Source of the DNA: Escherichia coli
GTDB lineage: Bacteria; Pseudomonadota; Gammaproteobacteria; Enterobacterales; Enterobacteriaceae
Reading direction: 5' to 3' (one strand)
Length of the DNA: 64,000 bases
Assembly: GCF_003991155.1 (NCBI RefSeq)
Contig: NZ_CP031293.1
The translations under genes were made by a program, and so were the position numbers. The first letter of the stretch is position 1. The number at the start of each line of letters is the position of its first letter. Below the pieces are notes generated by a model, which did no database searches, was not told the DNA's origin, and saw only the letters and a program-made list of their open reading frames with translations. Positions 30,256 through 61,207 of this stretch are shown one piece after another.

Positions 30256-30343
30256 TTTTTTTGCGCTGACTTCAATTATTTAACAGAACAGTGCCTGGTA
30301 GTAACGACAATAATTTACCAAGACAAATAAATAAGACAAACTC

Positions 30344-30377
30344 AGACACGCTCATGCTTGAGACGTGTCTTTTTTAT
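30344..30377 (+). terminator. Rho-independent terminator downstream of zinT
   Basis: AGACACG...CGTGTCT hairpin followed by TTTTTTATT. Confidence 0.7.
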
Positions 30378-43001: not shown

Positions 43002-43613
43002 CTATTTTTGTTTATATAAATCGTAGGAACTTAATTTTTTAGATTTCTCATAGGCATTTTCAATGTATAAAGATACATCTGCTAAAAATCGGTCTTCTTC
43101 TATCAATGAAATATAAGAACCAGTCAATTGATCATATGATTTGCACTCAGGGCAACAATATTTATCTTCTGAAGTTAAATTAAACCTATTATTATTAATA
43201 ATGTCATATAGTTCAGTTGTGTCAATAGTTCTTGATGAACATCCATCAGGCTTGATTGAAGAAGATACTAACCAGTCATAGCTATTATTAACCTTCATTA
43301 TCACACCAACAATGCCATTAGTTCGGGAAGTGGTTCCTCCTCTCTTGTATTCTTTCAATGCATATTCAATTTCCCAGTCAATCCATTTACTTTTAATCAT
43401 ATTCGGGGAAATAATAACGATTAAAACAGATGTCCCGAAAATCATATTTTTAAGATTGTTCTTTATATTATCTACTGTTGTATTACTTATATCAGGAGAC
43501 TCCGATGTTTCCCCTTTATAGTAAACAGCATCATCACCTAATGCCTTGACAATTTTGTCTCTTAAATCCTGTGCTTCACTATATTTATATGATATGAATG
43601 TTTCATGAGCCAT
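43002..43613 (-). CDS. thsB: Thoeris ThsB, TIR-domain protein (203 aa)
   Basis: N-terminal FISYKYSEA... TIR-like beginning, about 200 aa, immediately downstream of SIR2-SLOG gene. Confidence 0.75.
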   Translation of the reverse strand: MAHETFISYKYSEAQDLRDKIVKALGDDAVYYKGETSESPDISNTTVDNIKNNLKNMIFGTSVLIVIISPNMIKSKWIDWEIEYALKEYKRGGTTSRTNGIVGVIMKVNNSYDWLVSSSIKPDGCSSRTIDTTELYDIINNNRFNLTSEDKYCCPECKSYDQLTGSYISLIEEDRFLADVSLYIENAYEKSKKLSSYDLYKQK

Positions 43614-43629
43614 AACTTCACCTAATATA

Positions 43630-45066
43630 TTATTTATTCAGTTTGTTTATGATTTTTATTACAACTTCTATTGTTTTTTTTACCGAAAAATCTTTTTCAG
43701 TAAGCTCAGACAAATCATTATATATCCATTCATTACTTCCATAATATTTCTTAGGATCTTGTGATATTTGTTCAAATATATATTTAGACATATACCCGGT
43801 ATTGGGTAAAGGAATTGGTACAAGGCCATGTTGAACAGCAATCTCAAACTCTCTAAATACTCCCCTAGCATTTACTATATCATTATTTTCCTCTTGTTTA
43901 TTTCCAAAAATAAACAATGCAATACCACCAAGAGGAATCATTCTCTGTCTATACTCCTCCCAAAGTTCTTGAATATCTTTCCCCTTACTGACAGTTTGTG
44001 GAAATGGTCTAACAATGAGCTGTTCTTCTGATAATTTATCTGGCCTACTATAAATTGCATCCAACGCACCATTTATCACAGAACTTCCGACGCCCCATCC
44101 AAATCCATTCACTATCCTATAATTATTCTTTATAATCTCATATGCTAATGTGTGAATAAAATCTAATGCTTTAGGTCTTTCAAGATCCCCATATTTTTCT
44201 GCACTACCAGAAATAAATATCGTTTTCTTTTTAAATGATTGCTCTATCTTAGCTAGAATTTTAGGGATGTCAGAATATTCATCTATTAATAATACTTGTA
44301 TACCAAATCTCTTGAGATCATCGATTCGCAGTTTTTGTTTTCTGATCTTATAATTTACTGTTTCTTCATCATCTAGGGAATTATTAGCCTCATTCTTCAT
44401 AAAGCAATAGTGTGTCCTCTTGTCCCCAGAATGAGTATACAAACGACTCAAAATGTAATCCAGATTTGGGTCGGTAAAACTAAACCCTATGAATAGAAAG
44501 GTTTTTGATATTAAATCTCCGCTAAGTGCGGTGATAAATGAAGCGTGTGTTCTGTAGTATTTTTCATACTGCTCTTTATATAAAATAGCCTTGGATGGGG
44601 ACGAAATATCACCATGCATTTTATATACTATCGCGTCTCGCTTAGGTCGTGTTGTATTTAAATCATCTATGTTTCTTTTTACATCTGCAATTTTGTAAAC
44701 TTTCCGCAGACTATCTTCAATTAAAGTGTCATAGTTTGTTGTCCAAAATGTCTTAATCGGTAAACGAGCAATTATATTATGAACCTCTGATGGCTCGGCT
44801 TGCTCAGAAAACTCTTCGATTATCTTCCTTGTGAGTTTTGTAGCCCCTTTCTTTTCATTAACATGAAATTGAGCAAGCGATATTAGATCGTCTTCTTTAT
44901 TAATGTCTAAACTAAGCTCTTCTGCTATATCGCTAAGTAATTCTTTCCAATCAACATAACCTTGACTTTTAGACATTCCTGCGCCAGAAAAAATAGCAGC
45001 ACAATCATTTTCAAGATCTTTAACAAAATCTTTTATGAAAACTTCAATTTCATTACTAAACGTCAT
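43630..45066 (-). CDS. thsA: Thoeris ThsA, SIR2-SLOG NADase effector (478 aa)
   Basis: N-terminal SIR2-like motifs (FSGAGMS, TTNYD, MHGD) and C-terminal SLOG-like glycine-rich region (FISGSAEKYG...GFGWGVGSSVINGALD); start set at MTFSNEIEV with GGAG RBS. Confidence 0.8.
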   Translation of the reverse strand: MTFSNEIEVFIKDFVKDLENDCAAIFSGAGMSKSQGYVDWKELLSDIAEELSLDINKEDDLISLAQFHVNEKKGATKLTRKIIEEFSEQAEPSEVHNIIARLPIKTFWTTNYDTLIEDSLRKVYKIADVKRNIDDLNTTRPKRDAIVYKMHGDISSPSKAILYKEQYEKYYRTHASFITALSGDLISKTFLFIGFSFTDPNLDYILSRLYTHSGDKRTHYCFMKNEANNSLDDEETVNYKIRKQKLRIDDLKRFGIQVLLIDEYSDIPKILAKIEQSFKKKTIFISGSAEKYGDLERPKALDFIHTLAYEIIKNNYRIVNGFGWGVGSSVINGALDAIYSRPDKLSEEQLIVRPFPQTVSKGKDIQELWEEYRQRMIPLGGIALFIFGNKQEENNDIVNARGVFREFEIAVQHGLVPIPLPNTGYMSKYIFEQISQDPKKYYGSNEWIYNDLSELTEKDFSVKKTIEVVIKIINKLNK

Positions 45067-50598: not shown

Positions 50599-50955
50599 TC
50601 AACATATTGATTCCGCCAGAACCGTATAATGCATTTTGGCTAATGCCTGCTTAACCCCCTTAAAATCCACCTCAGATAGTTTTTCAGCCGCGTTCTTTTT
50701 CCATGCTTTTTTCAGAAGATGTTTCTCCGCATTTCTCATCGCCAGATCGATTAGCCTACAGACAAACTCATGATCCATTACATGCGTTATAATCATATTA
50801 CTGGTCGTTTTATCCTTTGAGTTAAAAAGCTCCGCGTAGATATGCAAGGACACAACATAAAAGATTTCAGTATTTTTATTTTTAAATGTATTCATTGGCT
50901 TTTCCTTTTGGTTAATATTAAAAATGAAATGCTGTAGCATTAGCGGTATACACAC
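50599..50955 (-). CDS. Hypothetical protein
   Basis: ORF, start uncertain (possible Met21). Confidence 0.4.
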   Translation of the reverse strand: MCIPLMLQHFIFNINQKEKPMNTFKNKNTEIFYVVSLHIYAELFNSKDKTTSNMIITHVMDHEFVCRLIDLAMRNAEKHLLKKAWKKNAAEKLSEVDFKGVKQALAKMHYTVLAESIC

Positions 50956-51242
50956 TTATAGACAATCCAAAGCTGACGAAGGTGTTGTTTTACCTTACTG
51001 TGGCTTACTTCTCCATAAATCCGATTCCTTTGGTCTTCTTCTGTGTCATCATAAAAATGATATCTCGTTTTTTTAATGATACTTTCCATAATGTCATTCA
51101 TATTGTATTTATTGTTGAGAAAATAATAAAAATCATCTGGTGCATTCCTCTGCAATTCGTCCATATAGTTCCTAAAATAACATTCGGCTTGTTCAATAAA
51201 CTGTTTTGTCGTAATAAGTTCTATCTTCATATTCTTCTCCAT
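50940..51242 (-). CDS. Hypothetical protein (100 aa)
   Basis: ORF co-oriented with alpA-like gene. Confidence 0.4.
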   Translation of the reverse strand: MEKNMKIELITTKQFIEQAECYFRNYMDELQRNAPDDFYYFLNNKYNMNDIMESIIKKTRYHFYDDTEEDQRNRIYGEVSHSKVKQHLRQLWIVYKCVYR

Positions 51243-51311
51243 TATTATTTAGGATAATAAAATGCCCTGTGCGAACAGTTATCTGTTCGACACGAGATCT
51301 TGTTTCTGTTT

Positions 51312-51530
51312 TTATGCAGCGTTCTGGCGTGAGTTTCGAATAGTCGTTTCAATCCATTCATCAATCTCACTTTCAACAAAAGCAACACACCTCGGACCTA
51401 TTTTTACTCTGTCAGGAAAGTTTCCTTCCTTAATACGCTCATATAAAGTCGTGCGACTGAATCCCACTCGATTTAAAACATCAGGAACGCGGATAAATCG
51501 TTTTACGCTGGTTTCAATATTTTCTTTCAT
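51312..51530 (-). CDS. alpA: AlpA-family phage/island transcriptional regulator (excisionase-like HTH), about 72 aa
   Basis: KRFIRVPDVLNRVGFSRTTLYERIKEGNFPDRVKIGPRCVAFVESEIDEWI matches the AlpA/MerR-like HTH pattern; start trimmed to MKENIET. Confidence 0.75.
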   Translation of the reverse strand: MKENIETSVKRFIRVPDVLNRVGFSRTTLYERIKEGNFPDRVKIGPRCVAFVESEIDEWIETTIRNSRQNAA

Positions 51531-51745
51531 TGTCTGTCCTCTATTATTGTAAGTAATCTCTATGAGATTTCGCTTTTCTCTATGTTGTTTCGACGTGAAC
51601 AATGATAGCGATTTTGCTTATGGTAATTTAGGGACGTTCAAAGAAGTTTTTTTTGAAAAATTCGAAGGGGCACGGATGGAAAGATAACGGTTAACACTGG
51701 ATGAGATCACGTTCGCTCGGAGCGAACGTAACCCTTTTACTTGGC

Positions 51746-52639
51746 TTATTTTTTCTTATTCCTGTCGTCTTCTACATGCTTTTCAACAGGGGAGTCTTTC
51801 AAGTGGTTGTTTTCCATCATGTAATCTTCAAGCGATTTCAGATAGCTCGCATCCGTCAGAAAAGCCATTGCTAACGGGTAGTCCGTTGCCTTTAGCATTC
51901 CTTCATCACGATCGTTGTCGCTGTCCTCGTGAAGCAGCGAAGAAATCAGTGAAAGCGGGATTTTAATGCCGTTATCTTCTCCCCAGAAGATCAGGTCCAT
52001 CATCGGGATAAGACGATATTCAATGATTTTTCTGAATGTGCTTTTGCCGAAACGATACTCTCTTGGCGCTGGAGACTTCATCTTAAGCTGTCTCTTCCAT
52101 TGAGGGATCAGCACTTTCAGATGTTCAATGATTTCTTCAGTTGATGCCTCTTCCAGATGAATATCGACAGTAATGCGTGAAAGATTATTAAGGGATGTTT
52201 CTTTTAGATACTCGGACAGAAATTCGGATTCGCTTAACGCGGAAAGCTCAGGCGTGGCTTCGGTTAATGCCAGCGTTTTCGCATAAAATTGCGCGTGGCT
52301 TCGTGTCGTAGGATTTACCGCGTAGGTTCTGGCAAGCTCATGTCCAAGGGTAGCGGTATCACCACTGAAAAAGATTTCACCGCTGAGGATCTTGTTGCGG
52401 TAATCATCCAGCATTAATCGGTTAAAGGTAGGTATGGTGTTCCGGCTCAACAACATTCTGTAAGCCAAGATACGCCGCTCAACCTCAACATAAAACTGCT
52501 GTAAGGTGAGTTTCTCTATCGCCTCATATCGTTCCACATCAAACCATGCTTCCAGTGCTTTCCTGATTTCACTTCTTTTCATCCATCCTCCAACAATCCA
52601 TTTCCTTTGATATATCTTCACAGGATCCGTTTGGAACAA
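51746..52639 (-). CDS. Hypothetical protein (297 aa) adjacent to serU
   Basis: ORF with RBS; no family recognised. Confidence 0.5.
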   Translation of the reverse strand: MFQTDPVKIYQRKWIVGGWMKRSEIRKALEAWFDVERYEAIEKLTLQQFYVEVERRILAYRMLLSRNTIPTFNRLMLDDYRNKILSGEIFFSGDTATLGHELARTYAVNPTTRSHAQFYAKTLALTEATPELSALSESEFLSEYLKETSLNNLSRITVDIHLEEASTEEIIEHLKVLIPQWKRQLKMKSPAPREYRFGKSTFRKIIEYRLIPMMDLIFWGEDNGIKIPLSLISSLLHEDSDNDRDEGMLKATDYPLAMAFLTDASYLKSLEDYMMENNHLKDSPVEKHVEDDRNKKK

Positions 52640-52860
52640 TTGAAGTTCAACTGTTTTGTCATCAGAGACGGGGGAATGGCTAAGTTGTTGTTAAGAGTGT
52701 GAACTCGAGAGCATAAAAGTGGATGCCCGACGCGCGGCAAAATGGTAAAAAACAGCATCAGTAGTAAGAAAAATTGAGCGAGAGAAAGGAATTTTAATGC
52801 AGGGATTTATGCATGACAAAATCAAAAATACTTTGTAAGTGATTGATTTTGTTGAATGAT

Positions 52861-52950
52861 TGGCGGAGAGAGGGGGATTTGAACCCCCGGTAGAGTTGCC
52901 CCTACTCCGGTTTTCGAGACCGGTCCGTTCAGCCGCTCCGGCATCTCTCC
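52861..52950 (-). tRNA. serU: tRNA-Ser (anticodon CGA)
   Basis: Reverse complement GGAGAGATGCCGGAGCGGCTGAACGGACCGGTCTCGAAAACCGG...GGTTCAAATCCCCCTCTCTCCGCCA has long variable arm and CGA anticodon. Confidence 0.92.
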
Positions 52951-53043
52951 GTTCAGATGGTTGCCATGATGCCAGGAAATTTGGCATTTTAACAGTCCCT
53001 GTCCGTGCAATTTTGTTCAAGTGACGAGTTTGCGAGCAAAACG

Positions 53044-53841
53044 ATGATTAAGTGGCCCTGGAAAGTACAAGAATCAGCACATCAAACTGCCCTTCCCTGG
53101 CAGGAAGCACTATCGATCCCCCTTTTAACGTGTCTGACGGAACAGGAACAAAGCAAATTAGTCACTCTTGCCGAACGTTTTTTACAGCAAAAGCGGCTTG
53201 TTCCTTTACAGGGCTTTGAACTGGATTCATTAAGAAGCTGCCGGATAGCACTTCTATTTTGCCTACCCGTTCTGGAGTTAGGACTGGAATGGCTGGATGG
53301 TTTTCATGAAGTCTTAATTTATCCTGCGCCATTTGTGGTCGATGATGAATGGGAAGACGATATCGGTCTGGTGCATAACCAACGTATTGTTCAGTCAGGT
53401 CAGAGCTGGCAGCAAGGGCCTATCGTTTTGAACTGGTTGGATATACAAGATTCTTTTGATGCTTCTGGTTTTAACCTGATTATTCATGAAGTCGCTCATA
53501 AGCTGGACACCCGTAACGGCGATCGCGCCAGCGGAGTTCCCTTTATTCCGTTGCGTGAGGTTGCTGGCTGGGAACACGATCTTCATGCTGCAATGAACAA
53601 CATTCAGGAAGAAATCGAATTGGTTGGCGAGAATGCGGCGAGCATCGATGCTTATGCTGCCAGTGATCCTGCTGAATGTTTTGCCGTACTTTCTGAATAT
53701 TTCTTTAGCGCCCCAGAACTTTTTGCTCCTCGTTTCCCTTCATTGTGGCAACGTTTCTGCCAATTTTATCAACAAGATCCTTTGCAGAGACTGCATCACG
53801 CTAATGATACAGACTCGTTTTCGGCGACGAATGTTCATTAA
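53044..53841 (+). CDS. mtfA: Mlc titration factor / zinc-dependent peptidase MtfA (265 aa)
   Basis: ORF trimmed to MIKWPWKVQ start; HEXXH motif IHEVAHKLD. Confidence 0.92.
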
Positions 53842-53941
53842 TTAACAACTTTGCAGATTAATTAACCAATTGAAATGACTTATGAAATTTATTGTTGACA
53901 GACAAGGTACCGCTAAGTAATATGCGCCCCGTTCACACGAT

Positions 53942-54017
53942 TCCTCTGTAGTTCAGTCGGTAGAACGGCGGACTGTTAATCCGTATGTCACTGGTTCGAG
54001 TCCAGTCAGAGGAGCCA
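53942..54017 (+). tRNA. asnT: tRNA-Asn (anticodon GTT)
   Basis: TCCTCTGTAGTTCAGTCGGTAGAACGGCGGACTGTTAATCCGTATGTCACTGGTTCGAGTCCAGTCAGAGGAGCCA, 76 nt. Confidence 0.93.
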
Positions 54018-54183
54018 AATTTTAGTCTTGAGACATCTCTATAAGTCTCAGGATAGTTAAAAAACAAGAACTTATCTTTACCCGGTTGTCTCGCAAGAGG
54101 CTGCTGGGTTTCTTGACATCCATAGTTTTTAGGGGCCTAATCAGGGGCCTCACGGTTCGGTGAGCAAACGGAGCCCCCACGCT

Positions 54184-55446
54184 ATGGCATTAACAGACAC
54201 CGCTATTCGCAAGACTAAACCCTCTGACAAACCCTTCAAAATGACGGACAGTTCTGGACTGTACCTGTTGATCAAACCTAACGGCTCAAAACTCTGGTAT
54301 ATGAAGTACCGCATCGACGGCAAAGAGAAGAAACTGGCCTTTGGCCCCTACCCGGAGATCTCCCTGTTGCAGGCTCGCCGCCTGCGCGAAACAGCACGCA
54401 ATAACATTCATGCAGGCGTCGATCCGGCTGCGGTGAAGCAAACCGAGAAACAGAAGAGGAAAAACGGGCAGACGTTCAGCCAGATCGCCATCAACTGGCA
54501 TAGCGAGCATAAACGCTGGTCTGAGCATTACGCGAAAACGGTTATGCGCAGGCTGGAAATGTACGTTTTCCCGGATATCGGGGATCGCCTTATCGAGGAG
54601 ATCGAAACGGAGGATTTGTTATTCACGTTGCGCAAGGTAGAGAGTAAAGGCTTTCTGGAAATCACCGCGCGGCTGAAAAACTACGTCACCGATATCATGC
54701 ACTACGCGATGAAAAAGAAACTGCTCAAAGCGAACCCGGCGCTGTATCTGGACGGTGAGTTTGCCGCGCCAGAAACCAGTCACTACCCGGCCCTGTCGCT
54801 GGATAAGTTGCCTGAGCTTTTATCCCGGACAGAGAATTACTGCGGCAGGCTGCTGACGAAATACGCCCTCAAACTTTCGCTGCTGTTTTTCGTGCGCTCC
54901 AGCGAGCTACGTTTTGCCCGCTGGAGTGAAATCGACTGGCAGCAAAAACTGTGGGTGATCCCGGAAGAACGCGAGCAGATCGAAAACGTGCGCTTCTCTT
55001 ACCGGGGGGCGAAAATGAAAATCCAGCACATTGTGCCGCTGTCGGATCAGGCGATTGCGATACTGAAGCAGATCGAGGCCCTCTCCGGGCATCTGGCCTT
55101 TATTTTTCCCGGCGAATACGACCAGAACAAGTGCATGAGCGACAACACCGTCAACAAGGCGCTGCGCGTGATGGGTTACGACACCAAAAAGGATATCTGC
55201 GGGCATGGCTTCCGGGCAATGGCCTGTAGTGCGCTGAGCGAATCGGGATTATGGAGCAAAGAAGCCATTGAAAAGCAGATGAGCCACCAGGAAAGAAACA
55301 GCGTCCGTGCTGCCTATATTCACAAGGCTGAATATCTGGAGGAACGGATCGAGATGATGCAGTGGTGGTCAGATTATCTTGATGCAAACAGTGACGGGTA
55401 TGTCTCGGCTTACCAGTATGCCCGCCGCCTAAAACAGGCGTCGTAA
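54184..55446 (+). CDS. P4-like tyrosine integrase of asnT-associated island
   Basis: MALTDTAIRKTKPSDKPFKMTDSSGLYLLIKPNGSKLWYMKYR N-terminus typical of P4-family integrases; directly downstream of the tRNA 3' end. Confidence 0.9.
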   Translation: MALTDTAIRKTKPSDKPFKMTDSSGLYLLIKPNGSKLWYMKYRIDGKEKKLAFGPYPEISLLQARRLRETARNNIHAGVDPAAVKQTEKQKRKNGQTFSQIAINWHSEHKRWSEHYAKTVMRRLEMYVFPDIGDRLIEEIETEDLLFTLRKVESKGFLEITARLKNYVTDIMHYAMKKKLLKANPALYLDGEFAAPETSHYPALSLDKLPELLSRTENYCGRLLTKYALKLSLLFFVRSSELRFARWSEIDWQQKLWVIPEEREQIENVRFSYRGAKMKIQHIVPLSDQAIAILKQIEALSGHLAFIFPGEYDQNKCMSDNTVNKALRVMGYDTKKDICGHGFRAMACSALSESGLWSKEAIEKQMSHQERNSVRAAYIHKAEYLEERIEMMQWWSDYLDANSDGYVSAYQYARRLKQAS

Positions 55447-55569
55447 GTTAACAAAGCATCAGAGGGGGAAAAGGTATATTCCCCCTTTGTGCGTTTCAAA
55501 TGTCGATGCTGACTGTAGCTTTTAAACTAAATTACTGGATAAAAAGTAGCTTTTAAGCTACTATCTTTT

Positions 55570-55743
55570 ATGAAAACGATAAAGACCTACATAACTGCCG
55601 ACGGGCGAGATCTGTATGCAGAGTTTTTTAAAGGGTTACGCAACCCCATCGCGAAGGCAACGATCGCTTCCCGGATCAACCGGATGGCTTCGGACAATTT
55701 TGGCGACCATAAGCCCTGCCGGGAAGGTGTCTGGGAACTGTAG
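55570..55743 (+). pseudogene. Addiction-module killer-type toxin gene (RelE/ParE superfamily), 3'-truncated by IS insertion
   Basis: MKTIKTYITADGRDLYAEFFKGLRNPIAKATIASRINRMASDNFGDHKPCREGVWEL then stop inside the IS left end. Confidence 0.6.
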
Positions 55744-55746
55744 TGG

Positions 55747-57709
<1,963 letters not shown>

Positions 57710-57988
57710 ATCTCGTTCTCCTTCATAACATTCCAGATTCCAGAGGTACTTCGTGCTGCTATAACGTACCCGACAACCGGAACACCGGGACAGACAATGG
57801 ATGCGGTATTCGGTTATAAAACGGTATATATTTAAATAGTGAACACCATGAGCGTAATATATTTATTTGATGAATGTATTGATGAAAGGAAAATTGCTTT
57901 TTAGCTATTATCGGCGGGTGTATAATTTAGTCCGTTTTTTTCAAATAAATAATCGCAAATAGCATCTGATGCCACTGAGGACGCAGGT

Positions 57989-58780
57989 ATGAATTTCAGA
58001 CCAGCAGTATATTTATGTGCAGCAACATTTTTACTGGCTGGCTGTGCGCCACGCTCCCCCATTGATGCGAAGAAAACGGGCGCATCCGCCAAAGAGAGCA
58101 GCATCAGCAAAAACACAACGGCACAACTGACCGATAAAGATATTTTTGGCAATGAAACCACGCTGGCAGTTTCTGAGGAAGATATTCAGGCAGCACTGGA
58201 AGGCGAAGCGTTCCGCGTGCCGCTGAATTCACCCGTGATTCTGGTTCAATCCGGTAGCCGCGCACCGGAGGCCATGATGCAGCAGGAAATGAGTAAATAT
58301 TATACCGTTGCCACATTCTCCGGTATCCCGGACAGACAAAAACCTGTGACCTGTAACAAAGACAAAAACAAAGATAAAAGCGAGAACCAGGATGTTGCTG
58401 TTGTTGAGAATATGAACTGGATGCAGGCACTGCGTTTTGTGGCTGCAAAAGGACATCAGAAATCGATTATTGTTTACCAGGATACGTTGCAGACAGGAAA
58501 ATATGACTCTGCGCTGAAATCAACAGTGTGGTCAGATTATAAAAATCAAAAACTAACTGACACAATGTCATTACGTTTTTTGGTTCGCTTCACTCTGGTG
58601 GATGTGGCAACTGGCGAGTGGGCTACCTGGTCACCTGTAAATTATGAGTCCAGAGTTATCTTCCCTCAGACTGAAAAAAAGGGTGCAATCACTACCGATG
58701 TGACAGAGCAACAAATCACCCAGCTTAAGCAGAAAACATACGCAGCAATGACCAGGGATCTGGTGAACCGCTATCAGTAA
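57989..58780 (+). CDS. Lipoprotein (263 aa)
   Basis: Signal/lipobox FLLAGCAP; Lys/Asp-rich central region. Confidence 0.6.
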
Positions 58781-58988
58781 GCAACATCCCCCTTACCTGC
58801 CGCTAATAAATAGTGGCGGCAGGCACTGGCACGAAAAACTCCCTGATGCTGACGATTATTAAACATCTTTCTGGTATTTTCTGTTGCAAACCATCCCATT
58901 CATAGCATATCAGTATCCATCATTTTAAATTTACAGTGATTGTATGCCTCAAAGCTAATCGCTTCCGATGATGGTGCCCGCAATAAAT

Positions 58989-59288
58989 TTAATCGGAATC
59001 GTCTTCTGTATCCTCCTCATATGAATCCCTGACGGTCCCCAGTTTTGTATTGCCATTGGCAGGCGTCCCATCTCCCATCAGAACGTCGATGTCATAGCCA
59101 GGATATTGTTTCTTTATATTGCGTTTGAACTCTGAGACCGTCGAATCATTTTTGGACATTTTCACCCGCTGATATTGTGGCATATCTTTTTTATCACCCC
59201 GGACGTCCTTACCATCGGGTGTTTTGAAGCGAACATCAAATCCCTGTACATCCCAGATTTTCTTTTCAACATTTTTTACTAATGGCAT
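58989..59288 (-). CDS. Hypothetical small protein (99 aa) downstream of hcp
   Basis: ORF with acidic C-terminal tail. Confidence 0.45.
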   Translation of the reverse strand: MPLVKNVEKKIWDVQGFDVRFKTPDGKDVRGDKKDMPQYQRVKMSKNDSTVSEFKRNIKKQYPGYDIDVLMGDGTPANGNTKLGTVRDSYEEDTEDDSD

Positions 59289-59340
59289 TTTTATTCTCTC
59301 TTCAGAAAATTACACTAAATCAAAAAAAGTATCGCTATTC

Positions 59341-59820
59341 TTAATAGAGTCTCTCTTCCCATAAGCTATATGCACTGGTTCCTGCAACACAGTGCTCCTG
59401 AGTAATACTTTCATAGGTGAATGATATGGCCTCTTCTGGTTGTCCCTGGCTATTGTTGACAGTGTGCGGCACAATATGCTTTATGCTGGCAATGCGGGCG
59501 TTAATCAGCTTCACTTTGAAATACAGCTCGTTAATACCAAAACGGTTGGTGCGGTAATACTCAAAATCACAGGTCAGACACTCATTTTCGCTGATAGCCT
59601 TACTCAACAAAGGGGAAGATTTATCCACGGGTTTCTGAATAATGAGCGCTTGATGATTCACGTTTTGTGCACGGGTTAATCCGTGGCTGAGTCCCAGCAC
59701 CATGATCTGATCCATATGCGCAATCTGCGCTTTGTTCCCAATAGATGCCAGTGATGAACAGCCTGCGGAGATCAGCCCCTGGAGATCGCCGTTCAGTGTC
59801 AGGTAAACAGGATTTGCCAT
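59341..59820 (-). CDS. hcp: Type VI secretion system tube protein Hcp (159 aa)
   Basis: MANPVYLTLNGDLQG...KPVDKSSPLL...ISFTYESITQEH pattern characteristic of the Hcp family. Confidence 0.8.
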   Translation of the reverse strand: MANPVYLTLNGDLQGLISAGCSSLASIGNKAQIAHMDQIMVLGLSHGLTRAQNVNHQALIIQKPVDKSSPLLSKAISENECLTCDFEYYRTNRFGINELYFKVKLINARIASIKHIVPHTVNNSQGQPEEAISFTYESITQEHCVAGTSAYSLWEERLY

Positions 59821-59841
59821 ATTAAGCTCCTTGGTCCGGGG

Positions 59842-61197
59842 TTATTTCCCGACCCCTTTATCAATAATTGCCGTTTCCGGTAGAGAGTGATTTTTCAGCA
59901 ACAACCAGCGACTTAACACGCCGTCCAGCCGCTCGTTAATCTGTTTTTCCAGTACGTCGGTATTCTGCCCCTGCGCACGGGCGTCCTGGTACTGCGTCAG
60001 CAGCGACTCAACGGGTGTTTCCTGCCCCAGCCCCCGCTCCGCCTGCCAGATAACATTTTTGATGTAGGAAAGGGTTACCCCCTCTTTCTCACGTTTCATC
60101 ACGAGGTCTGCAAAGGCATGTAAGTCCTGGCGGGCCTGTAACCAGCCGCGTAACTGTGGACTACTCTGCGCACGAGTTTTCAGCGTCTCATTCCACTGTG
60201 CGGTGGCCTGCTGCTGTTGCAGACTCTCCGGCCAGCGGCTGTCGGCGGTACGCGCCATCTGTAAGCCCGTATTCAGCGGCTGAACAGGTGAAGCATCAAG
60301 GAGTTGCTGTAGCCTGCGCTCATAGTTTTCCAGCTCAGGCGACACAAGCCAGACTGTCGCAGCGCCCTGCGCGGTATCGCTGACCTGGGTGAGTTGTTGC
60401 TGCATGGGAGAGACCAGCCACCACCAGAGAGCGGCGGCAACAGCCCCGGAGCAGAGAACACCCGCGATAAAACCTTTCACCGCACTGCCCTGCTTTGCCA
60501 CACTGGTCGGTGGCGTACTGTCAGCCAGGCTGCGCACCTCCACCTTCATCTCCGGCAGTTCAGGCAGCGGCGGCATCACCGTTTCGGTTGCTGGCGTAAT
60601 ACCGTTTTCCGGGGCATAAATCAGCGTTCTGACCGTGGTCTGTGCGGTGTGTTCAACGCTGCTTTTCGGCTGCGGCTCAAGTCGTTTACGCGTGTTCTGA
60701 ACAAAATAAAGCAGGTTTTCCACGCGCGGCTGGCGCTTCAGTTCCACCTGCTGGAGCTTGTCACAGATAAGCTGTAGTGCCCGTTCCGTGCGATATAACA
60801 GAGGCAGGTCAGCCTCCACAAAGGATATCTGCTGGCGCAGGATATTCCCGGTGCGGGTGTTGAACCAGTCCAGCATCTCGGTCCGCGCCGGGCCGCCCTG
60901 CGGCCAGAAGTTATCCCACTCGTGAGTGACCATCGCCGCCAGCAATTCCGCCCCTTCGCAGAATCCCGCCAGCCCCTGTGTCCGGGTCCGGGCCAGCGTG
61001 TAGTAGGTGGCGGTATGCAAATCCACCCCGTTGGCCTTAAATATCGCCAGCGCCAGCGACTCCACCAGTTTCCAGTTCAGCTCCGGCTGCGACGGGTGGC
61101 TGGCCTTGTTGATTTCCTCGCGGATGGCGCTGAACTCTGGCAGGCCACGCGGGTCACTGCCGGTAACGATAGTTTGTGTCAGTACGTTATTGCTCAT
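59842..61197 (-). CDS. Type VI secretion TssA/VasL-family protein (ImpA N-terminal domain with internal TM segment)
   Basis: N-terminal ImpA-like region (DPRGLPEFSAIREEINK...NWKLV...LLAAMVTHEWDNFWPQ), hydrophobic segment FIAGVLCSGAVAAALWWWLV; start set at MSNNVLTQ with GAGGAG RBS just after tssM stop. Confidence 0.7.
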   Translation of the reverse strand: MSNNVLTQTIVTGSDPRGLPEFSAIREEINKASHPSQPELNWKLVESLALAIFKANGVDLHTATYYTLARTRTQGLAGFCEGAELLAAMVTHEWDNFWPQGGPARTEMLDWFNTRTGNILRQQISFVEADLPLLYRTERALQLICDKLQQVELKRQPRVENLLYFVQNTRKRLEPQPKSSVEHTAQTTVRTLIYAPENGITPATETVMPPLPELPEMKVEVRSLADSTPPTSVAKQGSAVKGFIAGVLCSGAVAAALWWWLVSPMQQQLTQVSDTAQGAATVWLVSPELENYERRLQQLLDASPVQPLNTGLQMARTADSRWPESLQQQQATAQWNETLKTRAQSSPQLRGWLQARQDLHAFADLVMKREKEGVTLSYIKNVIWQAERGLGQETPVESLLTQYQDARAQGQNTDVLEKQINERLDGVLSRWLLLKNHSLPETAIIDKGVGK

Positions 61198-61207
61198 CCC
61201 TGTCTCC

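Follow-up and report, generated by a model that had tools for sequence, protein, structure and literature searches.

At the 3' end of the serine tRNA gene serU, in a 64-kb stretch of Escherichia coli DNA (hereafter the window), lie two genes of which neither encodes an integrase. The original prediction, made from the sequence alone, described the pair as an AlpA-type regulator and a 297-aa protein pointing away from the tRNA, and this agrees with the coordinates, the strands and the position of serU. The layout is nevertheless ordinary: it is the excision-factor end of a known mobile island that has its integrase at the far end. Because the integrase is found there and the element has already been described, the apparent anomaly of a tRNA without an integrase beside it disappears. 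Only one thing is unusual: the end that carries the intact tRNA is that of alpA and DUF6387, not that of the integrase.

The serU-adjacent genes and the limits of the island

The window has 100% identity to the chromosome of E. coli strain 2016C-3878. Both ORFs were found in it on the minus strand (Table 1). For the 297-aa protein, encoded by ORF 51746-52639, a homology search had been proposed, and it returned DUF6387 (PF19924) as the sole Pfam match (E 1.8e-53; 182 bits against a cut-off of 28.9 bits), covering positions 1-258 of the 258-position profile from residue 20 of the ORF; recombinase homology was absent, and no tyrosine or serine recombinase domain or fold was found. ORF 51312-51602 matches Phage_AlpA (PF05930; E 2e-18; 66.5 bits against a cut-off of 21 bits). 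The longest ORFs of both genes open at TTG, but translation more likely begins at ATG codons that have good Shine-Dalgarno sequences before them: ATG 52582 (GGAGGA), for a DUF6387 protein of 278 aa, and ATG 51530 (GAGGA), for an AlpA-type protein of 72 aa, with RefSeq in agreement on both. The 297-aa ORF thus exists as such, but the length does not hold for the protein.

Table 1. Features of the serU island and its two junctions in the window
Feature	Position	Strand	Basis or remark
Distal att core, displaced serU end TGGCGGAGAGAGGG	30925..30938	+	direct repeat D17; K-12 homology ends here
Left att arm (int upstream region)	30939..31102	+	conserved with Affinibrenneria locus L006
P4-type tyrosine integrase, serU type, 406 aa	31103..32323	+	Arm-DNA-bind_3, Phage_int_M, Phage_integrase (Pfam)
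AlpA-family ORF	51312-51602 (longest); 51312-51530 (72 aa)	-	Phage_AlpA PF05930 (Pfam)
Perfect palindrome ACGTTCGCT-CCG-AGCGAACGT, 9-bp stem	51709..51729	-	DUF6387-alpA spacer, just past the DUF6387 stop
DUF6387 ORF	51746-52639 (longest); 51746-52582 (278 aa)	-	PF19924 (Pfam)
Right att arm (DUF6387 upstream region)	52583..52860	-	alignment with tRNA-Ser(UGA)-type islands
Proximal att core, last 14 nt of serU	52861-52874	-	direct repeat
serU, tRNA-Ser(CGA)	52861-52950	-	ARAGORN, Rfam tRNA

Since serU is on the minus strand, its 3' end faces DUF6387 and alpA, which are the first genes past it and are transcribed in the same direction, away from the tRNA. No integrase lies between serU and the pair. 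A scan for terminator-like sites in the gap from serU to DUF6387 gave none, so that read-through from the tRNA into DUF6387 is possible, and the interval 50900-53100 holds nothing that matches a known RNA family in Rfam besides the tRNA. Of 5,426 complete E. coli genomes, 380 (about 7%) have this segment next to serU. Downstream of alpA, at 50599-51242 on the minus strand, are two small genes (100 and 118 aa as longest ORFs) that match unannotated PHROGs only and are 95% conserved with IE3 and ROD21 (SEN1996/1997; PMC3198454).

The limits of the island were set by alignment to the empty site of K-12, in which the window segments 30478-30938 and 52861-54024 are contiguous, with 14 bp duplicated. 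The 14-bp repeat is the last 14 nt of serU and occurs exactly twice in the 64 kb, against 0.01 copies expected. Together, the repeat pair and the K-12 comparison define an island of 21.9 kb at 30939-52860, with which a low-GC stretch coincides. The idea that an expected integrase had been replaced by other genes does not survive: an intact P4-type integrase gene starts 164 bp inside the distal repeat, about 19 kb from DUF6387-alpA, and the order int ... alpA-DUF6387 has been published for the ROD21-like (EARL) islands (PMC6035254; PMC10763509). No further recombinase or internal att site is annotated in the island.

Each end carries an arm region next to its core, and both arms are present in 385 of the 5,426 complete genomes. 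The left arm contains two exact copies of TGTYCGRYARTG, at 30952 and 31016, which are conserved in the Affinibrenneria locus and are candidate arm-type sites with a presumed binding role; window-wide, the motif is not significantly enriched with one mismatch allowed. In the right arm, blocks common to serU- and serT-type islands lie next to the core (CAAAATCAA / TTGATTTTG, and TGCAT[A/T]AAA twice), and they overlap a promoter-like TTGTCA-17-TAAAAT at 52819-52791, upstream of DUF6387. These promoter and binding-site assignments come from consensus matches and conservation only.

Between the arms, besides int and the serU-adjacent pair, are a VOC-family gene, pilV, a type IV pilin gene, traD, a MobQ relaxase gene and a ThsA/ThsB pair, and further genes encode RepL, DUF4756, a full-length H-NS homologue (134 aa), DUF6404, a truncated H-NS (80 aa) and the two small proteins. 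A full conjugation system is absent from the island annotation. The pair at 43002-45066 on the minus strand is a Thoeris type I system, with ThsB (TIR, E 1.4e-85) and ThsA (SIR2, E 8e-203), and it occupies the place of tcpC and other TIR and macro-domain genes in CFT073, a swap of TIR-based cargo.

Outside the island, yodB is absent: at 30256-30477, between zinT and the serU flank, 222 bp stand in place of 995 bp of K-12, a replacement independent of the island. On the other side, at 53942-64000, asnT precedes a second P4-type integrase gene (54160-55446), with a RelE fragment and an IS3 element after it and a type VI secretion cluster beyond these; CFT073 has the yersiniabactin HPI in this place.

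The serU island and its relatives

The island is the published E. coli "serU island", a relative of the EARL islands. The serU island was reported for UPEC CFT073, 536 and Nissle 1917 (Williamson and Free 2005, as cited in PMC7074111) and is the source of Hfp/H-NSB, H-NST and TcpC (PMC7074111; PMC8835471). The window island has the insertion at the 3' end of serU with its repeat, an integrase of the serU type and homologues of Hfp/H-NSB and H-NST; no tcpC is annotated in it, and tcpC is cargo that does not define the boundary. Relative to CFT073 and Nissle, nucleotide identity is 96% for the integrase gene and 97% for alpA plus DUF6387. The gene order from serU to zinT is identical in the CFT073 locus, where the island likewise runs serU-DUF6387-alpA-...-H-NST-DUF6404-Hfp-DUF4756-RepL ... 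MobQ-TraD-pilS-pilV-...-int. The cargo differs, with ThsA/ThsB and the VOC gene in the window and tcpC, a second TIR gene, a macro-domain gene and others in CFT073.

The serU island has been described as a relative of EARL that differs from them in integrase and site (PMC7074111; PMC3198454), and SEN1970 and SEN1999 of ROD21 are 25% and 40% identical to their serU-island counterparts (PMC3198454). EARL were described in 2018 as having an integrase at one end and an RDF (recombination directionality factor) with an 843-bp unknown gene at the other (PMC6035254; PMC10763509). The 843-bp gene of PMC6035254 is annotated as DUF6387 in ICEKp258.2, and the two-ended architecture, this protein included, is therefore already published. 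ROD21, ICEKp258.2 and IE3 all have a P4-type integrase gene at one end and genes for an AlpA-type RDF and DUF6387 at the other, both ends pointing inward, and they share MobQ/TraD, pilS/pilV and H-NS homologues with the window island.

The EARL islands differ in that they target tRNA-Asn, have a repeat of 24-37 bp and place the intact tRNA against int, whereas the window island targets tRNA-Ser, has a repeat of 14 bp and places the tRNA against DUF6387. In IE3, the order is tRNA-Asn → int ... alpA ← DUF6387 ← and then the 24-bp repeat; in the window, it is the 14-bp repeat, then int → ... alpA ← DUF6387 ← and finally ← serU. An EARL island is recognized by a ROD21-type integrase gene directly downstream of tRNA-Asn, and here the integrase is distal, at a tRNA-Ser, and only 27% identical to that of IE3. 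For AlpA, the amino acid identity to the IE3 homologue is 67%.

The two islands are mosaics of one another. Identity of 89-97% is found over an int ORF that is a pseudogene in IE3, pilV-pilS-traD, mobQ, a lipoprotein/DUF4755 block and the stretch that runs from H-NST as far as alpA's last 65 nt; the breakpoint is at 51376, within alpA. What differs as a set is the integrase specificity, both arms, DUF6387 (40% amino acid identity) and the N-terminal three quarters of AlpA. The joint difference of integrase, arms and AlpA would fit a specificity-matched set; given that DUF6387 sits between alpA and the arm, its co-replacement proves no functional link. Decay is evident in IE3 (E2348/69; L013 20001-20225 and L027 5317-6787), in which the serU-type integrase gene and mobQ are pseudogenes, and its alpA has an ACG start codon (PMC8844411).

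Two better-known systems offer comparison. In KplE1, HK620 and Sf6, the integrase (IntS) and the RDF (TorI, an AlpA-like winged-helix protein) are likewise not co-transcribed, and in KplE1 IntS and TorI repress the integrase promoter, which overlaps attL (PMC2951348); these elements differ in having no DUF6387 partner and in an integrase gene that abuts the tRNA (argW). CP4-57, with intA-yfjH-alpA, and phage P4, with int/vis, also keep an AlpA-family factor close to a P4-type integrase, and in CP4-57 an unrelated gene, yfjH, lies between intA and alpA. They differ in that YfjH is encoded on the opposite strand and all the genes are at the tRNA-proximal end. Homology of DUF6387 to YfjH was ruled out (hhalign probability 0.3%).

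DUF6387 as a companion of integrase and AlpA genes

When 1.84 billion representative proteins were searched with a profile, 407 DUF6387 clusters came up, and all of the 120 full-length members that were aligned match PF19924 only; a related-locus search with a 12-sequence alignment gave eight loci. Flanks were informative in 18 lineages. In 15 of these, the gene after DUF6387 on the same strand belongs to the AlpA family, at a distance of 120-220 bp, and in eight a P4-type int is the immediate upstream neighbour on that strand. Loci that are contiguous from the tRNA onward include tRNA-Gly→int→DUF6387→AlpA→AlpA (L022) and tRNA-Phe→int→DUF6387→AlpA (L024), and the cassette is also seen in prophage-like contexts (L018, L035). 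Judged by gene order, the contiguous cassette with int beside the tRNA is the common form, of which the EARL/serU layout is a permutation. Three lineages are exceptions: the one of L029 and L030, described below, has neither int nor AlpA; L025 has int upstream but no recognisable AlpA gene downstream; and L026 has no AlpA gene, while its upstream sequence is too short for int to be judged.

The junctions of the window island recur separately. Mangrovibacter and Citrobacter youngae have tRNA-Ser(UGA)→DUF6387→AlpA, the same junction as in the window, and Affinibrenneria has the left junction, with the repeat, the conserved arm and an integrase that is 81% identical. In the Affinibrenneria salicis locus (L006 480-1270), four tandem copies of the tRNA-Ser(GGA) 3' end and its downstream flank lie upstream of int, two of them with an inserted hairpin-like segment, and int, DUF6387 and alpA all point the same way, int and DUF6387 being separated by only 46 bp. 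The DUF6387 gene of Mangrovibacter plantisponsor (L009 10001-10813) is truncated to 84 codons. Hafnia and Kluyvera have another permutation, in which int is divergent from DUF6387 and right beside it. These loci were considered as simple tandem EARL arrays, which was ruled out, since no tRNA-Asn or tRNA-Ser fragment longer than 9 nt lies between int and DUF6387.

Two further arrangements were observed. In L035 (194-3037, on a 4.9-kb contig), int is followed by a tRNA-like gene, called as tRNA-Ile with anticodon TAT, and then by DUF6387, which may be a further permutation or possibly an excised or tandem form. In L029 and L030 (2146-4875), DUF6387 occurs without int or AlpA; its neighbours on the two sides are an ankyrin-like gene and one for a D12 adenine methyltransferase, and a TraW-like gene is near.

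DUF6387 is a real gene under strong purifying selection, with dN/dS of 0.04-0.11 against five orthologues, 0.04 against CFT073, and tighter constraint than alpA. The 278-aa protein is all-alpha and acidic (pI 5.6), whereas AlpA (pI 9.0) and Int (pI 9.8) are basic. An AlphaFold2 model built on the 120-sequence alignment has pLDDT 89.5 and pTM 0.82, compared with pLDDT 64 for an earlier model on the 12-sequence alignment, and a fold search gave no structural match to it. W13, F14, Y19, R37, R163 and D196 are near-invariant across the family. A literature search found no published test of SEN1999 or DUF6387.

What the protein does can be put only tentatively. An accessory role, as the conserved third protein of the int-DUF6387-AlpA cassette and an accessory or regulator of excision or of alpA expression acting via protein contacts, is possible and is the role we would suggest, at somewhat short of even odds; the acidic charge and the lack of a detectable DNA-binding fold make protein contacts the most likely mode of action. 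It is rather unlikely that DUF6387 is an obligatory third protein of the module, with a novel fold, that may set directionality or couple excision to a signal.

A somewhat doubtful alternative is that DUF6387 is a passenger beside att, expressed early or constitutively for establishment, anti-defence or exclusion, and that only AlpA and Int excise the island. Positions next to att commonly hold accessory genes, and the same low pI would suit a passenger, as would the failure to detect a DNA-binding or enzymatic fold. The one lineage that has DUF6387 between the ankyrin-like gene and an orphan D12 methyltransferase, without int or AlpA, is also in keeping with it, and the 120-220-bp spacer before alpA, with its own conserved palindrome, suggests separate control. 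Against this, even relatives with only 24-29% identity keep DUF6387 between int and alpA, while the rest of the element shifts from island to prophage-like content, PADLOC gives no match for DUF6387, and the gene is hardly ever seen on plasmids (7 of 72,556 records, of which several are probably chromosomal) or in phage genomes. An accessory role in excision or in alpA expression is rated as slightly likelier than that of a passenger.

A probable split recombination module and its alternatives

The window probably contains one integrative mobilizable island at serU whose recombination module was split by integration. Site-specific recombination at the final 14 bp of serU would have brought the island in, leaving int and one arm at the end with the displaced tRNA fragment and DUF6387, AlpA and the other arm at the intact tRNA. 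Int would recombine the 14-bp cores, such that attL x attR yields a circular island, in which, from the geometry, int and DUF6387-alpA would be adjacent and divergent across attP. That the tRNA abuts alpA/DUF6387 is explained by the tRNA-Ser-specific integrase lineage, in which the polarity of the core relative to int is opposite to that of canonical P4-type elements.

The 72-aa AlpA-family protein is a predicted RDF that falls in a PHROG annotated as "excisionase and transcriptional regulator". By analogy with SEN1998 of ROD21, TorI and AlpA, it would bind the att arms, chiefly the arm on its own side, and help Int to form an excisive complex. The proposal that such a protein is an excision factor is reasonable, and the idea has already been studied in a homologue: SEN1998 binds attR of ROD21 at 0.7 uM and attL at 3.5 uM (PMC8844411). 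Since the published EARL layout puts the RDF gene opposite int, attR is presumably the arm on the side of SEN1998. F24, Y30, P39 and R47 (SEN1998 numbering), residues named as important in TorI (PMC8844411), are present in the 72-aa translation. Deletion of SEN1998 lowers ROD21 excision only slightly, to 4.4-6.6% from 4.8-7.7%, and IE3 excises with its AlpA start codon mutated (PMC8844411), so that, by analogy, the AlpA-type protein may be dispensable for excision. A role for DUF6387 as a directionality factor would explain both the weak effect of the SEN1998 deletion and the excision of IE3 with a crippled alpA.

Expression of the module may be tied to the same sites. The candidate promoters of int and DUF6387 lie within the arms, where the recombination proteins would bind; those proteins probably modulate the expression of both genes too, which would be an autoregulation like that of KplE1 (PMC2951348). 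The palindrome in the DUF6387-alpA spacer has an invariant stem and a variable loop in seven of seven Ser-type loci, and palindromes akin to it (GTTCAC/GTGAAC) are found in distant DUF6387 loci; it could be an alpA operator or an RNA hairpin.

The predicted attP junction, GAATGAT-TGGCGGAGAGAGGG-TCTAAATTT, is absent as an exact 30-mer from JGI metagenomes and IMG/VR, and a synthetic attP of 417 bp has no contiguous match in the 5,426 E. coli genomes, in which every match to the island is at serU and no second location was found; these searches thus gave neither an excised circle nor a tandem array. It could be argued from the lack of a junction or second location in these genomes, from the incomplete conjugation genes and from the IE3 pseudogenes of the relaxase and the serU-type integrase that the island is a decaying remnant, fixed at serU and unable to excise, with alpA and DUF6387 kept for regulatory cross-talk or by inertia. 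This is improbable, given that int, alpA and DUF6387 are intact both in the window and in CFT073, with a DUF6387 dN/dS of 0.04 between them, and that the island is found in only about 7% of genomes. The replacement of tcpC by Thoeris genes implies recent exchange, and the related IE3, ICEKp258.2 and ROD21 excise (PMC6035254; PMC10763509), with ROD21 also transferring by conjugation (PMC3976249). Intact genes, constraint and cargo replacement thus argue against a dead remnant, as far as sequence comparison can tell.

The original prediction had suggested that the pair may be the regulatory end of a separate element. Even with an integrase 19 kb away, tandem EARL arrays reported at one tRNA (PMC6035254) and the divergent int immediately beside DUF6387 in Hafnia and Kluyvera, such an element, next to or within another island and with its own integrase missing or elsewhere, is extremely unlikely, because the only two core copies in 64 kb bracket exactly the DNA that K-12 lacks as a single 21.9-kb insertion, the island has no annotated internal att site or second recombinase, the end-to-end layout recurs in CFT073 and in 385 genomes, and EARL islands share the two-ended layout (PMC10763509).

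A single island with a split recombination module thus remains the preferred reading. To the published two-ended layout, the present analysis adds the contiguous tRNA→int→DUF6387→AlpA cassette of distant relatives, a confident all-alpha model without a structural match and the strong purifying selection on DUF6387. Many Gammaproteobacterial islands have DUF6387 together with P4-type integrases and AlpA-type factors, among them islands of UPEC, EPEC, Salmonella Enteritidis and K. pneumoniae ST258. If DUF6387 controls excision, it would be a new component of a system thought to need only Int, an RDF and host factors, and it would bear on the movement of islands that carry virulence and defence genes.
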